A stretch of 41,368 nt of DNA from a virus (taxonomy: Duplodnaviria; Heunggongvirae; Uroviricota; Caudoviricetes). Every line of letters starts with the position of its first letter. Position 1 is the first letter of the stretch. The notes beneath the pieces are model-generated. The model was not told the DNA's origin, did no database searches, and was given only the letters and a program-made list of their open reading frames with translations. The translations under genes were made by a program, and so were the position numbers. Positions 2,071-29,980 of the stretch are shown piece after piece. Where the stretch lies: IMG/VR virus record IMGVR_UViG_2671180984_000033; one strand, written 5' to 3'.

Positions 2071-3458
2071 GCTATACCTCTCTTTTTCATGGCATCGAGC
2101 AGGATGTCCTGCACTGTTCGTTTTGAGTTGCGCCGCTCCATCACCATTTCGTCCATAGTGTCGGCAGCAATAATGTGGTGAATAAATACCGGACGATTGT
2201 GTCCGGCCTGTATCTGTCTGGTTGGGCCGATACGTTCAATAATTTGCTGATATTGCTCCAGGTCCCACCAGTGTGAGAAAAATACCAGTATATTTCCGCC
2301 GTCCTGCATGTTCAGACCGTGGCCCGCGCTGGCTGGGTGTGCAAAGAGAACAGGAATCTTTCCGGAATTCCAGTCACGTAGTGTCTGTGGATCCTGGTCG
2401 AGGTGACGACCGCGAGGAAATGCTTTAAGCAAGCGTTCAAGATCGTGTTTCCAGTGATAAGCAACCAGCACAGGTGCGCCAGCTGCTTCGGTCAGTATGC
2501 TGTCCAGCGCCTGTAGTTTGGTGTCATGCAGTTCTGACCAACTTCCGGTGTCATCTGTGTATACTGCGCCGCTGGCGATTTGCAGACACTTCAGTGTCTT
2601 TGCCGCGGCGTTCGGTGCTTCGATGCCTTCGCCATTCAGCTCGAGGTACATTTCCTTTTCCATTTCACGATACTGCTGACGGGCCTTCGGCGGCATATCC
2701 ACGCGGATTACGTTATGGATGGGGTCTTTGATATCGAACCAGTCGGCCGCATCCAGCGAGAGGGTCACATCGGCTAACGCTCGCTGTATTTCACCCTGTG
2801 AGTGAGCAAAAGGCTCCAGTTTGGTCCAGCTCTGCCCCGGAAACTGTATCGATTTGAACCAGCGTGAGGTAAACGCGCCGTAAGTGCGCCCGAGACGTTG
2901 CCCCTGGTCCACAAACCACGATTGTCCCCACAAATCTACCAGGCCGTTCGGTGCTGGCGTACCGGTGAGATTTATCCAGCGCCGGACATACTTGTGCGCC
3001 ACTTTGCCCAGCGCCGCCGCGCGCTTACCACCACCTCGCAGCCGGAAGGATTTTAGCCGGGTGCTTTCATCTGGAATGACAGTACCGAACGGCCATCGTT
3101 CTCCCAATTCTTCAACCAGCCAGACAAGGTTATCGTAGTTGATTGTGAACACGCTCGCGTTGCTGTTCGCCAGCGCTGTAGAGCGCGCTTTGGCGTTACC
3201 GATGATCGGCTGTACCTCAATATTACGCAGATGCCCCCATTTAACAGCTTCATCAGGCCAAGTGCTTGCTGCAACGCGTAGCGGCGCGAGGACCAGCGCG
3301 GGGCGTGTTTCTGCTCCAGCCATGAAAAGATCTTCCAGCGTGGTGAGTGTCGCTACGGTTTTACCCATCCCCATCCCTGCCCAGATGTTGCCGCGCAGGG
3401 GCTCGATTTGATGATTGATGATGAGATCTTGGTAGGGACGTGGTTTAAAAGTTATCAT
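2067..3458 (-). CDS. SNF2/DEAD-like ATP-dependent helicase
   Basis: N-terminal PRPYQ motif and Walker A GMGMGKT; 463 aa. Confidence 0.7.
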   Translation of the reverse strand: MITFKPRPYQDLIINHQIEPLRGNIWAGMGMGKTVATLTTLEDLFMAGAETRPALVLAPLRVAASTWPDEAVKWGHLRNIEVQPIIGNAKARSTALANSNASVFTINYDNLVWLVEELGERWPFGTVIPDESTRLKSFRLRGGGKRAAALGKVAHKYVRRWINLTGTPAPNGLVDLWGQSWFVDQGQRLGRTYGAFTSRWFKSIQFPGQSWTKLEPFAHSQGEIQRALADVTLSLDAADWFDIKDPIHNVIRVDMPPKARQQYREMEKEMYLELNGEGIEAPNAAAKTLKCLQIASGAVYTDDTGSWSELHDTKLQALDSILTEAAGAPVLVAYHWKHDLERLLKAFPRGRHLDQDPQTLRDWNSGKIPVLFAHPASAGHGLNMQDGGNILVFFSHWWDLEQYQQIIERIGPTRQIQAGHNRPVFIHHIIAADTMDEMVMERRNSKRTVQDILLDAMKKRGIA

Positions 3459-3481
3459 GAAGAAAATCCCTGATTAGAAAG

Positions 3482-4084
3482 GTGCTCTTGAACATCATGA
3501 ATGTAAAAGATTTATCAATTACAACGGTTCTCTTGGCCGCCCTTTATTTTATGGCTTTTTCTTTTTACAAAGGGTACAGCTCATTTTATGGATTCCCTGT
3601 AAGTTTTATTTCTATTGGGATTGAGGAAATAGTTAAATTTTCTGTTATTGCATTAGGACTTTTGTGCACCTTAGTCGCTTTGCTGCATATTGATACTGAA
3701 GAGAAGAATATTCCATGGTGGGTGTATTTATTTTTCTTCATTTTGGCCTCTTTGCTTTCATACTGGACAATGTATTTATATGGCGGTAGCTCATACCTTT
3801 ATGAAAAATCCATAAGGGATGTGGCTACCCAAGCAATACTGTTGGGATTTATTAGCCCTATCAGTGTCAGGGCAGTATCTGTTTTTATTAGGAATGAATT
3901 TAGAATAAAAAACAAAACTCATGGGGTTATGCTTTTTATATCTATAGCAATGCTTCCTTCAGTCCTTGGGTGGGCATGGGCATACTTATCAGATGAGCCT
4001 CTTTTTTATTCTAAAAAATATGATGCTTATATTATCGAAAGCTATAACGGAAAATTTGTCTTGGGGAACTGTAAAAAAAAATAG
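3482..4084 (+). CDS. Multi-pass membrane protein of unknown function (accessory gene)
   Basis: About 200 aa with several hydrophobic segments; visibly AT-rich island on the opposite strand to its neighbours. The likely ATG start is at 3497 (track start 3482 is GTG). Confidence 0.5.
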   Translation: MLLNIMNVKDLSITTVLLAALYFMAFSFYKGYSSFYGFPVSFISIGIEEIVKFSVIALGLLCTLVALLHIDTEEKNIPWWVYLFFFILASLLSYWTMYLYGGSSYLYEKSIRDVATQAILLGFISPISVRAVSVFIRNEFRIKNKTHGVMLFISIAMLPSVLGWAWAYLSDEPLFYSKKYDAYIIESYNGKFVLGNCKKK

Positions 4085-7114: not shown

Positions 7115-7804
7115 ATGACTGTGGGTAATAAGAGACAGCCTAATGGATTACCTGAATATTATTGTCACCGTGGTAACGACATAAAAGATGCGATAGTTCG
7201 GGATTTTATTATTCAGCCTGTTGCACACCTGAAACTTATTACTGGACAAACTAAAACCAGTTATTCCGGTTATCCGTTAACCGATCAGTACTATTGTTTT
7301 TCATTTAAAAAACGCTCTGATGAAAATTGTACAGGGGCTTTTTTCTGTGGTAGAGATGTTGCAAAGGATTTCATTCGGCGTATCGGTTGTACAGAGCTGC
7401 CGTTATTTAATCCTATGAAATCGGATACCAGTGCAGCAATAGAACGTTCCGGTTCTGGCTCAGGTAGTTCTGGTATTACTGTCAAGCCAAATGCTGACAA
7501 AAAGCTATTTATAGACGCAGCTCGTCTGTTAATGACGCTGTGGGATTCAACAAGTAAGGGACAAACCCCACTGGCGTCGGTTCTTAATGAAGCAATTTCT
7601 GGTGGTATAGATAAACCTCCAGAAATTAGACATGTAGTGGCGGTTAATACAATGTTGGGTAACACAAAAAATACTTTAACTGGTTTGCTGGATAAAGCAA
7701 GAGCGAAGTATCCTGATGTGTTATTCAGAGATTTTGATTTCACGCCTCTTAACGAGATTGTAAAACGTTCAAAATCATATAATAAGCATCCCCCTTGTTA
7801 TTGA
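7115..7804 (+). CDS. Two-domain Cys-rich protein of unknown function (accessory gene)
   Basis: 229 aa; AAGGAG Shine-Dalgarno 8 nt before the ATG; N-terminal domain with CH...C...C...C, a SGSGSGSSG linker, then a C-terminal domain; opposite strand to the replication operon. Confidence 0.5.
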   Translation: MTVGNKRQPNGLPEYYCHRGNDIKDAIVRDFIIQPVAHLKLITGQTKTSYSGYPLTDQYYCFSFKKRSDENCTGAFFCGRDVAKDFIRRIGCTELPLFNPMKSDTSAAIERSGSGSGSSGITVKPNADKKLFIDAARLLMTLWDSTSKGQTPLASVLNEAISGGIDKPPEIRHVVAVNTMLGNTKNTLTGLLDKARAKYPDVLFRDFDFTPLNEIVKRSKSYNKHPPCY

Positions 7805-11261: not shown

Positions 11262-11440
11262 ACTGTGGTCCTCGCTACAAGGAGAATGAAAGTGATGATC
11301 AGACCGAGCGCAGTGGCAACGGCCAGACCGGTCATCAAATCGAAGTTTTTACGGCGATAACGGAGAACATCGCGCCCCGTCAGTCGATGGATGTGTTCAG
11401 GTTTCATCGGTTGTATTCCTTTTTTCATATCGGGGAGCAC
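11258..11440 (-). CDS. Small membrane protein (first gene of the leftward early operon)
   Basis: 60 aa, Arg-rich N-terminal half and one C-terminal hydrophobic helix (LAVATALGLIITFILLV); 4-nt overlap with the next gene. Confidence 0.4.
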   Translation of the reverse strand: MLPDMKKGIQPMKPEHIHRLTGRDVLRYRRKNFDLMTGLAVATALGLIITFILLVARTTV

Positions 11441-11465
11441 GCTGTTGCGAGTGCGCTTTCAGACA

Positions 11466-11492
11466 TAAAAAAGCCCGTCACGTGAGGCGGGC
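11466..11492 (-). terminator. Intrinsic terminator-like hairpin on the minus strand, upstream of the leftward operon
   Basis: Minus-strand GCCCGCC-TCACGTGA-CGGGC followed by TTTTTT. Confidence 0.45.
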
Positions 11493-11631
11493 AAAGACTA
11501 CACACAGCAATTACATGGATATCATCGAGTGCCTGCTTTTAACCACATCAGGCGAGGTGGTTCTCCTTGTACCCCTACAGTGAGAAATCGTCTAATATCT
11601 CTTCACCCCTACAGTTTGAGAGAGATTAGAT

Positions 11632-12201
11632 ATGTCTGAAGAAAAAGGAATTCTTTCCCGGATAACTGAATCGTTATCCGGCGTGGGAGGAGCAATTAAA
11701 AGCGCGGTTGGAGCAGCAAGAGAGATTCAGAATCTGACTGTCGACTATGCAGTTAAAGAGAAGACGCACATCTTACTCGATAAGCTAATGGATGTTCAGA
11801 TGCAGCAAATGTCGCTTCAGGAGCTGCTGATTGCGGCTAAGGAGAAAATTGTTGAACTGGAAAATGAGAAAGTAAAGCAAGAGAACTGGGCCGCTGAAGC
11901 GGCGAGCTATGAACTTTACCAGCCTATGCGGGGTACTCTGGTCTATCGCAGCAAGCTTTCTGCAGATGCTGACCAATCTCCGGTTTATATTTGTCCCAAT
12001 TGCTACGAGCAAAAGAGAAAATCTATATTGCAAGCGGAAGGTCTGGTTACTAAGCCAGGCCTTGGGCGAGCCGTTAATATGGTTTGTTCGTACTGTAGGG
12101 CTTCCTATCTGTTCAACCGAAATGCTTTAGAAGCCCGACTGCCTTCTGAAGATGAAAATCCGGGGAAGGCAATCACGGATTACGATCCTTACAACCAGTA
12201 A
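11632..12201 (+). CDS. Coiled-coil / zinc-ribbon protein of unknown function (accessory gene)
   Basis: 189 aa; ICPNCY...VCSYCRAS pair of CxxC motifs; convergent with the repressor. Confidence 0.5.
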   Translation: MSEEKGILSRITESLSGVGGAIKSAVGAAREIQNLTVDYAVKEKTHILLDKLMDVQMQQMSLQELLIAAKEKIVELENEKVKQENWAAEAASYELYQPMRGTLVYRSKLSADADQSPVYICPNCYEQKRKSILQAEGLVTKPGLGRAVNMVCSYCRASYLFNRNALEARLPSEDENPGKAITDYDPYNQ

Positions 12202-12251
12202 TTTCTTTAAGCATGGGTACCCTTCCGGCCACCCAGAGTTAAAGGAACTAA

Positions 12252-12278
12252 GCGCCCCATCGTCGGGGCGTTTCAACT
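12252..12278 (+). terminator. Putative intrinsic terminator after the zinc-ribbon gene
   Basis: CGCCCC-ATCGTC-GGGGCG hairpin followed by TTTCAACTT. Confidence 0.45.
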
Positions 12279-12520
12279 TGCGTGACTTATCAGTTCGTCG
12301 CGGTGTTGTCCTCTACGCTTACCGTACGCATACGGACTCGGCGCTTACCTCGATCCCATCGGGTGCCATTTCATTTTGCCAGGAGTACTGCGGCTTACCT
12401 GTCACGCGGTTCAGTTTGTTAAAGAGCTGGTATTAAAAAACGCATTAATTATGCGATATCGTATTTATATGCATTATGGGATTTTGTGTCAATACGAAAA
12501 TGAATTATTTTGCAAATAAG

Positions 12521-12547
12521 AAAACCGCCCTTGTGGAGAGCGGTTTG
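12521..12547 (-). terminator. Intrinsic terminator downstream of the repressor gene
   Basis: Minus strand AAACCGC-TCTCCACAAGG-GCGGTTT followed by TCTTATTT. Confidence 0.55.
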
Positions 12548-12576
12548 ATCAGAAGTAAGTTATCAGACTGTAAAGG

Positions 12577-13251
12577 TTAGTACATGCGTAGCGCGGATTT
12601 GGCGATCCCCGCCACGTAATGGATTTTTTCAATGTTTTCGCGTGGTACTCTGACTGGTGGATGATCTTCATTTACAGACATTAGATGGAACAGGCCATCG
12701 CGTTCGAACAAGAAGGTTTTAACCATGACCTCACCGTCCCGGGTAACCACAAGTACTTCATCACCAGGAGTGTAGTCGTGGTTGGGTTCGACGATTACGA
12801 ACTCACCCTCTTTGATTCTAGGCATCATTGAATCACCAACACATTTCAGGGCGTATGCATCTTCATCCTTTGTCGGCCAGTATATGAAACCATCACTGCT
12901 ACCTACTGAATATTGGGTGTCGCTCCAAAGTCCTCCAACGCCTAGCTGAGTGTTTCCCAAAACAGGTACTTTATTAAACCTAAGAGAAATATACGTTTTT
13001 ATACCTGTCGCGTCCTCTTTCTCCATTTCTTGAAGGCTCCTTTCTGCCAGGTCTATTGGTGACACGTGGAAGTAGTCGGCGATCTGCTTTAACGTTGCGT
13101 ATTTCGGATCTTTCACCTCTCCTGATACCAGCCTGTGTAGCGTTGGTTGGTTCAGTTGTAACCGACGTGCCAGCTCAGTTATCGAGCTTATCTTGGCTTT
13201 GTCCATCAGGTACTTGATGTTTTGAGAAAGGATATCGGTAGTATCAATCAT
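12577..13251 (-). CDS. cI-type repressor (HTH plus S24 LexA-like peptidase domain)
   Basis: N-terminal HTH (ITELARRLQLNQPTLHRLVSG) and C-terminal GDSM serine-protease motif; divergent from a cro-like gene. Confidence 0.85.
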   Translation of the reverse strand: MIDTTDILSQNIKYLMDKAKISSITELARRLQLNQPTLHRLVSGEVKDPKYATLKQIADYFHVSPIDLAERSLQEMEKEDATGIKTYISLRFNKVPVLGNTQLGVGGLWSDTQYSVGSSDGFIYWPTKDEDAYALKCVGDSMMPRIKEGEFVIVEPNHDYTPGDEVLVVTRDGEVMVKTFLFERDGLFHLMSVNEDHPPVRVPRENIEKIHYVAGIAKSALRMY

Positions 13252-13392
13252 TTGGATTCATCCATGTTGTATACAGGGACGGTGATTATGCGTTATCGGA
13301 TATTTTAATCCAGGATGATATAGAATTGCCGTATTGCTGAATAATCCGTTTTCGTATAAATTTGCGCTATAGACGAAAGTGGAGACTTAAAT
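13252..13392. promoter_or_regulatory. Divergent immunity promoter/operator region between the repressor and cro-like genes
   Basis: 141-bp AT-rich intergenic region with GGAT/ATCC half-site repeats, TTGCTG and TATAAA hexamers, and a GGAG Shine-Dalgarno before cro. Confidence 0.55.
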
Positions 13393-29527: not shown

Positions 29528-29980
29528 ATGGAATTCGAAATCAAAGGCGTGAAATATCGCGCGGCAAAACTCAACGTTTTTGACCAGCTGAAAGTGACCC
29601 GCAAACTTCTGCCGGTACTGGCGGGAATGATGTCAGATTTCGGGAGCATTCGCTCCCGTTTGCCTGCTGATGGCAAAATTGACACCGTGAAATTCGAACA
29701 GTTAAAACCGGTGTTTGAAACCATGCTCCCGCGTATCGCTGAGGAACTGTCTTCCCTGACCGAAGATGACACCGATGCGATTATTCATCCCTGTCTTGCG
29801 GTGGTATCGCGGCGTCATATGGACGGATGGGTGCCGGTATTTACCCAGGGCGAACTGATGTTTGATGATATTGACTTGCTGGTCATGCTGCAGCTGGTGG
29901 CGCGGGTGGTCGCCGATTCGCTGGGAAATTTTTTGCCTACACCCCTTACCAGCACGACGCAGAGCCTGCAACAGGGCTGA
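29528..29980 (+). CDS. Tail assembly chaperone
   Basis: 150-aa ORF directly upstream of the tape measure gene, with a slippery run near its 3' end. Confidence 0.6.
   Translation: MEFEIKGVKYRAAKLNVFDQLKVTRKLLPVLAGMMSDFGSIRSRLPADGKIDTVKFEQLKPVFETMLPRIAEELSSLTEDDTDAIIHPCLAVVSRRHMDGWVPVFTQGELMFDDIDLLVMLQLVARVVADSLGNFLPTPLTSTTQSLQQG

Follow-up and report, generated by a model that had tools for sequence, protein, structure and literature searches.

A Rip1-family gene behind a sieB-type promoter and sas-like antisense module: a probable abortive-infection cassette in a temperate Escherichia coli phage

Organization of the Locus

The window analyzed here is the whole of a 41,368-nucleotide (nt) stretch of DNA from a member of the Caudoviricetes (IMG/VR record IMGVR_UViG_2671180984_000033), and this study deals with a single plus-strand open reading frame (ORF) next to its immunity region, referred to as rip1 because of the homology described below, together with the element immediately upstream of it. 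A preliminary description, made from the letters of the DNA, had reported an ORF of 189 amino acids (aa) convergent with the repressor gene. Both points were borne out, since the 189-aa ORF was found on the plus strand, and a repressor with helix-turn-helix (HTH) and Peptidase_S24 domains was found facing it on the minus strand (Table 1). Beyond the repressor there is a cro-like gene and then a primase. On the other side of rip1, a minus-strand operon begins at about position 11407 and encodes proteins of 49, 300, and 433 aa (the last with DUF2800 in relatives), a DUF2815-type protein, Nmad5, and a DNA polymerase. In addition to the repressor and the cro-like gene, the window contains terminase genes, and the relatives annotate a Q antiterminator and lysis genes. 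In the matching records with annotation that were examined, rip1 was always labeled as a "hypothetical protein".

Table 1. Features of the rip1 locus; positions are those of the window.
Feature	Position	Strand	Remarks
Intrinsic terminator	11463..11512	-	GCCCG...CGGGC then UUUUUUAU; fold (11495-11466) with dG of -9.8 kcal/mol
Exchangeable cassette	11520..12252		sas/promoter module, rip1, and about 50 nt of 3' sequence; delimited by flank-only matches
sas-like antisense RNA region	11529..11636	-	5' end at the start codon; by lambda/P22 homology
Stem A	GCCTG 11531-11535 / CAGGC 11549-11553	-	GCCU/AGGC, predicted; 99% paired cells; UA-to-GC in four sequences
Stem B	AACCAC 11541-11546 / GTGGTT 11557-11562	-	CCAC/GUGG, predicted; 97% paired cells; interleaved with stem A
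Stem-loop II	GAGAA 11582-11586 / TTCTC 11561-11565	-	UUCUCG/CGAGAA, predicted; 96% paired cells; loop holds one CUGUAGGGGU
sieB-type promoter	11567..11605	+	Putative, by homology only (alignment to P22)
Direct repeat copy 1, ACCCCTACAGT	11571..11581	+	Overlaps the -35 region; minus-strand RNA reads CUGUAGGGGU in the loop of stem-loop II
Stem-loop I	arms 11619-11630 / 11591-11602	-	Predicted fold; window register 48% paired across the family
Direct repeat copy 2, ACCCCTACAGT	11605..11615	+	First bases of the inferred mRNA; apex of stem-loop I on the minus-strand RNA
rip1-family gene	11632..12201	+	N-terminal amphipathic helix, long coiled-coil helix, C-terminal beta/zinc-ribbon domain
Leftward promoter (PL) leader	12253..12427	-	175 nt; starts with rrn-type boxA GCTCTTTAACAA at 12416-12427
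Left operator (OL)/PL	12448..12508	-	Putative; three operator-like sites, cores ATGCGATATCGTAT at 12451-12464, 12476-12489, and 12492-12505
CI-type repressor	12577..13251	-	HTH and Peptidase_S24; terminator 12546-12522

The Gene Product Is a Homologue of Rip1

The BLASTP comparison showed that the window protein is 52% identical, over the full length, to gp37 of phage HK446, and phmmer matched its residues 3-166 to chain L of the Protein Data Bank (PDB) entry 9oox with an E value of 3.5e-47. This chain is the "ring interacting pore 1 (Rip1)" of HK446, and it was also the one solved structure matched by a profile built from 72 homologues (E value of 2e-47). In agreement, both proteins are made up of an amphipathic N-terminal helix, a coiled coil, and a beta domain with a CxxC...CxxC pair. 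In the AlphaFold2 (AF2) model of the window protein, helices span residues 3-34 and 39-90, as expected from the helical or coiled-coil N-terminal half of the preliminary description, and the beta domain spans residues 93-162. The zinc-ribbon-like pair mentioned in the same description corresponds to C121-P-N-C124 and C152-S-Y-C155, which are invariant in the 72 diverged homologues; moreover, these four cysteines were invariant in all the alignments of the rip1 family. Residues W86, Y93, Y105-R106, and the motif KSILQ were invariant among the closer relatives and mostly kept in the 72-member set. The helical hydrophobic moment was highest in the N-terminal 36 residues of the window protein, and the first 24 residues of HK446 Rip1 resemble this high-moment N-terminus.

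Relatives of the gene were found by tblastn in E. coli phages of the vB_EcoM-606R2 group (~97% identity), in HK446 and ev099 (52-53%), in HK620 (hkaP), HK629, and HK630 (29%), and in Pseudomonas Mu-like phages such as D3112 (orf25), DMS3, and JBD30 (about 30%). A word-indexed homologue search gave 16 relatives only, and an exhaustive profile search was needed to reach the size of the family, which has 3406 representatives at 50% identity, nearly all of 150-175 aa. The window protein had no Pfam match, and PHROGs assigned it only to the unnamed family phrog_1244. No SieB family was among these Pfam or PHROG matches, and the Rip1-type and SieB-type ORFs found downstream of the promoter module described below fell into separate BLASTP classes.

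The window protein differs from HK446 Rip1 in an extra 25-residue C-terminal tail, residues 165-189 (about 12127-12198), which ends in ITDYDPYNQ. A DYDPY tail was also observed in two 188-aa relatives (P0004 and P0011). Lambda-type SieB ends in SYDPYN, and the YDPYN of the tail was considered as a possible recombination joint; no DNA similarity was found at that place.

From these comparisons, the gene product is, at the sequence level, a close relative and a full-length homologue of Rip1. Since Rip1 is a characterized defense protein, the homology makes rip1 very probably a prophage-expressed exclusion or abortive-infection gene. The proposal in the preliminary description of a lysogen-expressed exclusion gene was thus supported with regard to the function, but the suggested correspondence to rexAB of lambda was not. 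The rexAB genes provide a lysogen-expressed, membrane-acting abortive-infection function near the immunity region; however, they are co-transcribed with cI on the same strand, encode two proteins, and have no homology to rip1. The positional counterpart of rip1 in lambda is sieB, which is found antisense inside the PL operon.

A sieB-Type Promoter Module Precedes the Gene

The ~130 nt upstream of the gene were strikingly conserved among the window, an E. coli O103 prophage carrying another rip1 allele, HK446, and HK620, and this conservation held with HK620 although its protein is only about 25% identical. When this element was compared by blastn, 200 phage records were matched, including lambda and P22, where the element is upstream of sieB. 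The match between the window and lambda was confined to 11529-11634, with 81% identity, and a five-way alignment of the module had 78% mean column identity. The two direct repeats of the preliminary description are within this element, and we confirmed that ACCCCTACAGT is present as two exact copies, 34 nt apart. Both copies and their spacing were kept in >50 distinct phage variants, indicating that the repeats are more than a chance event.

The P22 annotation places the sieB promoter at 29690-29720 and the start of the sieB RNA at 29727, and these positions were aligned onto the window bases. This points to a promoter with a poor -35 box, TTGTAC (11567-11572), a -10 box, TAATAT (11593-11598), and a probable start at A11605, which is the first base of the second repeat and would leave a 5' untranslated region (UTR) of 27 nt. 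Among the variants of the module, the -10 box was TAAACT, TAAAAT, TAATAT, or TATAAT. By sequence homology, 11529-11636 is the counterpart of the P22/lambda sieB promoter, and its other strand is that of the sas antisense RNA.

Likeness to known systems was not limited to the promoter. The sieB/esc/sas region of P22 and sieB of lambda have the homologous promoter and antisense module in the same place and orientation inside the PL operon, and sieB is likewise an abortive-infection gene expressed from the prophage. However, the cargo is unrelated, as SieB is a membrane protein, and an internal start like that of P22 Esc is not evident in rip1. The same module precedes HK446 rip1. It also precedes hkaP of HK620, which carries the annotation "putative superinfection exclusion protein" and is a member of the same family, with 25-29% identity, likewise antisense in the PL operon. 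This is a far more distant allele, and the PL operon that surrounds it is of the classical lambdoid kind, with N/hkaQ on one side of the gene and cIII on the other.

The window also holds CTGTAGGGCT at 12093-12102, within the codons of the second CxxC, and this is complementary at 9/10 positions to the inferred 5' end of the mRNA, ACCCCUACAG. About 1.6 one-mismatch matches per window are expected by chance, and HK446 is without this sequence; therefore, the complementarity is probably due to chance.

The Other Strand Resembles the sas Antisense RNA

RNA-seq of P22 (PMC13397905) has given the sequence of its sas RNA, which reads as the reverse complement of the homologous element and has its 5' end at the sieB start codon. 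According to later papers that cite Ranade & Poteete 1993, sas switches sieB translation between SieB and the inhibitor Esc. To analyze the structure of the equivalent RNA, 26 distinct variants were aligned as minus-strand RNA, and four helices were scored (Table 1). This alignment is small and its sequences are related, and the support for the structure is supportive rather than conclusive. The conserved helices showed compensatory changes, both UA-to-GC and CG-to-UA. Moreover, ten cells were G.U on the minus strand, i.e., A.C on the plus strand, and zero were the other way around. The inverted repeat of the preliminary description was also present: TCTAATATCTCT pairs with AGAGAGATTAGA at 11/12 positions, with a free energy (dG) of -11.4 kcal/mol and a z value of -2.55, and this hairpin fits stem-loop I of the antisense RNA. 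Nearly every variant was predicted to fold a 5' stem-loop of its own, with registers that differed between variants; these stem-loops pair the anti-start-codon/anti-Shine-Dalgarno bases with the anti -10 region and have the other CUGUAGGGGU at the apex. No Rfam family matched the sas/promoter element.

Collectively, this analysis assigns the direct repeats and the inverted repeat to the sieB-type promoter and the sas-like antisense RNA, and they look functional. The sas-like RNA could come from its own promoter or from processed PL RNA, and in the window, it may run on to the terminator at 11466.

The Gene Is Antisense to the Putative Early-Left Transcript

Operator-like 17-mers of one family, with a 14-bp near-palindromic core, ATGCGATATCGTAT, were found around the repressor gene: three on the left, and two (13285-13301 and 13341-13357) in the interval that separates the repressor from the cro-like gene. 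The left set and this right set (OR) are inverted copies over 24 nt. Direct reading of the hexamers over OL suggested a leftward promoter with TTGACA at 12494-12489, a 17-nt spacer, and TATAAA at 12471-12466. The boxA of the PL leader was the only exact boxA match in the window, and the immunity-specific sequence starts at 12428, adjoining it. The leader was conserved at 98% even beside a different repressor (contig L007). When compared with nutL, the leader had the exact boxA, and neither a boxB hairpin nor an N gene was recognized. A structured put-like antitermination RNA in 12240-12470 was also considered and dropped, as the fold was no better than that of shuffled sequences (z +0.68). Three GGUAAGC copies were observed in the leader.

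The order along the minus strand is PL/OL (~12460-12510), boxA, rip1 backwards, the sas-like region, the terminator at 11495-11466, and the replication genes, and no other leftward promoter was seen before the replication genes. Most likely, the early-left transcript crosses rip1 and the sas region in antisense and reaches the terminator, and it would continue into the replication genes, which would need read-through or antitermination past 11495-11466. This antisense placement suggests that the lytic transcription of the prophage itself silences rip1.

Similar placements were found in other phages. HK446 rip1 and its counterparts in the Pseudomonas Casadabanvirus (JBD30 gp30 and D3112 orf25) are likewise single prophage genes antisense to lytic genes: in HK620, HK446, and HK630, the gene is antisense between N and cIII, and in JBD30, gp30 is antisense between the small DNA-binding gene gp29 and the large terminase gp31. 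The phage of the window differs from HK446 in the backbone, as its early-left region encodes DUF2800, DUF2815, DNA polymerase A, and Nmad5, and it was deposited as a myovirus; in addition, its rip1 is directly between PL and the replication genes, with no adjacent N gene. Both repeats were found upstream in 38/41 enterobacterial Rip1 loci, and the flanking ORFs in these loci were nearly always on the opposite strand. In two viral contigs (L139 and L140), with a P0011-type Rip1 at 3001-3567 and ~50% identity, the sas repeats were absent upstream, and rip1 was still opposed to both neighboring genes. The antisense placement may be more general than the sas module.

Two hairpins flank this region. 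On the plus strand, the preliminary description had reported a terminator-like hairpin after the gene, and this was present at 12250-12275; it is GC-rich, has a dG of -15.8 kcal/mol and a z value of -2.58, and is followed by UUUCAACUU. However, it was not confirmed as a terminator belonging to the gene: the hairpin was kept in two relatives that lack rip1 (L006 and L007), indicating that it is backbone sequence, the T-tract is poor, and a consensus terminator scan gave no call. It may nevertheless stop rip1 transcripts. On the minus strand, the terminator that ends the antisense stretch is upstream of the first early-left gene (start about 11407) and comes after 24 nt that match exactly the 3' part of the consensus of the small RNA (sRNA) RprA. 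A 46-nt stretch that includes the terminator (~11467-11512) was 87% identical to the 3' end of the annotated rprA, present in nearly all the E. coli genomes. The likeness is thus to the 3' end of RprA, with its terminator, and it covers the 3' third only; the Rfam score for RprA (RF00034) was 49.8 bits, below the gathering threshold of 70, with the 3' 46 nt alone being similar. This terminator was conserved in all the related prophages whatever the cassette they carry, and it belongs to the phage backbone, not to the rip1 cassette. An RprA-like 3' module would be present on any transcript that ends at this terminator, a long sas-like RNA among them.

The Gene Is Part of an Exchangeable Cassette

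Comparison with related prophages placed the exchange points of the cassette at 11519/11520 and 12252/12253. Among 5426 complete E. coli genomes, the flanks were present in 169, and most of 11400-12600 was present in about 49. In related E. coli prophages, the insert at this site is a different one: L006 (1620-1948) and L007 (1621-1910) have about 290-330 bp of different sequence there, and L005 has a different, 174-aa rip1 allele. L006 has the same repressor as the phage of the window, and rip1 is absent from it. Reading by eye, the L006 and L007 inserts each showed one small ORF in the PL direction (minus strand), one of ~65 aa and the other with a CxxC...CxxC pair.

The downstream ORF was then counted in at least 120 viral contigs with the sas/promoter module, with classes assigned by BLASTP. 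We found P22-type SieB in 60, Rip1/HkaP in 26, and other cargo in 29, the last class being composed of lambda-type SieB, a third SieB-like membrane protein, and an 80-aa protein. The third SieB-like protein, of 177-184 aa (MPNWIEAVIAYLKQNTSLRF...), was observed in L021, L038, L067, and L087, and the cargo of 80-83 aa (MSDIPTMTFPIGLTYP...) behind the module in L013 and L022; neither had a BLASTP match to P22 SieB or Rip1. The cargos observed behind the module were, in all, at least three SieB types, two Rip1 clades, and the 80-aa protein. In L020, L032, L084, and L113, the module is cut just past the -10 box, and a CCCCCTTATTTTGTCAGGGGG hairpin takes the place of the second repeat and the cargo; these look like emptied sites.

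Elsewhere in the window, a second opposite-strand ORF of 229 aa, with no Pfam or PHROG match, was observed at 7115-7804 on the plus strand, inside the early-left operon and between the DNA polymerase and Nmad5. This stretch is ~700 nt longer than in phage vB_EcoM-611R5 and may be another cargo site.

Alternative Explanations

Two other explanations concern the upstream element. The preliminary description had read the inverted repeat as a structured leader of the rip1 mRNA that sequesters the ribosome-binding region and gates translation. A plus-strand hairpin with the stability given above is indeed predicted, and the GAGAG Shine-Dalgarno-like bases that immediately precede the AUG are within it. 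However, if the mRNA starts at A11605, as P22 homology indicates, the 5' arm of this hairpin falls outside the mRNA, upstream of it, where the -10 box is. Moreover, the pairing register was kept in only 48% of the cells across the family, and the G.U cells of the neighboring conserved helices were all on the minus strand. A leader hairpin that gates translation is, then, unlikely, and this part of the preliminary description was not sustained. Alternatively, the sieB-type promoter could be regulated by a protein for which the two ACCCCTACAG copies serve as DNA operators, not as RNA elements. One copy is over the -35 box and the other at +1, with the -10 box between them and a fixed spacing of 34 bp, both show almost no variation among the cargo types, and a poor -35 box is typical of regulated promoters; but no candidate binding protein was linked to the module, the motif was found in very different phage backgrounds, and the antisense RNA has both copies in or close to the loops of its predicted or conserved hairpins. 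An operator role is therefore doubtful in our view, bearing in mind that the RNA and DNA roles of the repeats are not mutually exclusive.

The remaining explanations concern the protein. A Rip1 homologue could have been repurposed by the phage that encodes it, for lysis timing, for a holin-like activity, or for packaging through binding to the terminase or portal ring of that phage, rather than for defense. This would agree with the placement of the gene among lysis and terminase genes in the Pseudomonas phages, with the extra tail of the window allele, and with the binding to terminase/portal rings and the membrane permeabilization described for the family in a review (PMC13434031). It is nonetheless quite improbable: the gene was opposed to every neighboring lytic gene in nearly all the loci, it is an optional cassette absent from close and otherwise intact relatives, and its promoter module is that of sieB, which lysogens express from their prophage. 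The four-cysteine zinc ribbon, the dimerizing coiled coil, and the proximity to the immunity region might also suggest a nucleic-acid-binding regulator of the lysis-lysogeny switch. The strong full-length homology to Rip1, the lack of a significant match to any DNA-binding family, and the dispensability of the gene in a relative with the same repressor (L006) make such a regulator highly improbable.

Discussion

The mechanism of Rip1 has been summarized, from Patel et al. (Nature 651:1060, 2026), in the review cited above (PMC13434031). Rip1 is described as prophage-encoded and non-toxic alone. Escaper mutations were found in the portal for phages of Pseudomonas and in the small terminase for phages of E. 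coli, an 11-mer ring of small terminase is surrounded by twelve Rip1 molecules, and the N-terminal amphipathic helices of Rip1 build a pore that leads to premature cell lysis. In this account, the mechanism is established only for the HK446 and Pseudomonas Rip1. The small terminase subunit is also listed as the component sensed by Rip1 in PMC13601566.

Taking the data as a whole, we consider it likely that the locus is a Rip1-family, single-protein abortive-infection cassette of a temperate E. coli phage, expressed from a sieB-type promoter and silenced by sas-like RNA and PL transcription. In the lysogen, CI would repress PL, and rip1 would be transcribed from the sieB-type promoter, starting at ~A11605, at a weak and constitutive level. 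By analogy with the HK446 and Pseudomonas proteins, Rip1 would wait in the cell without doing harm until a superinfecting phage produces its small-terminase or portal ring. The C-terminal coiled-coil/zinc-ribbon half would assemble around that ring, the N-terminal amphipathic helices would then make a membrane pore, and cell death would precede the maturation of the progeny. If PL is fired by the resident or a homoimmune phage, transcription would become convergent, and the sas-like RNA would pair with the 27-nt 5' UTR and the start codon, as suggested by P22 sieB/sas. This pairing would halt new Rip1 synthesis when the resident phage turns lytic, i.e., it would provide self-immunity.

Several observations weigh against this interpretation. 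The consensus promoter scan called neither the sieB-type promoter nor PL, the latter because the last base of its -10 box is A, and the transcription start, the promoter, and PL were assigned by homology or by reading the hexamers. No promoter was found for the sas-like RNA. The small terminase of the phage itself (Terminase_2) had no sequence match to any 9oox chain, and PADLOC (2023) had no model that matched the window protein. Moreover, an antisense RNA would not remove the Rip1 protein already made before induction. P22 also protects itself by means of Esc, an in-frame product from inside sieB, and reading of the sequence revealed no internal start with a ribosome-binding site in rip1: the in-frame Met53, Met57, and Met60 exist, but no Shine-Dalgarno-like sequence was seen upstream of them, and the internal Met is not conserved family-wide.

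A broader proposal is that the sieB locus works as a conserved "socket", in which a promoter and sas module placed backwards in the PL operon accepts swappable abortive-infection cargos, with self-immunity provided by the antisense RNA and convergent PL transcription, and, in this phage, an RprA-like 3' end that could lend the antisense RNA a further role in trans via Hfq. We put this forward tentatively, as an idea that falls somewhat short of probable. If true, the socket would let a prophage hold a pore-forming suicide protein such as Rip1 and yet finish its own lytic cycle.

A "hypothetical protein" without a Pfam or PADLOC (2023) model can now carry the name of a Rip1 defense gene. The protein is an added member of a family published in 2026, and its novelty is accordingly limited; the link between Rip1 and sieB/sas and the logic of self-immunity are the part worthy of experiments. 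Across lambda-like, P22-like, and unrelated backbones, the regulatory module appears to be fixed, with the abortive-infection genes behind it exchanged as cassettes. A further question is how a prophage with a ring-triggered pore survives its own induction, and the sieB/sas module, together with the placement of rip1 antisense to PL, is proposed as an answer that can be tested genetically.

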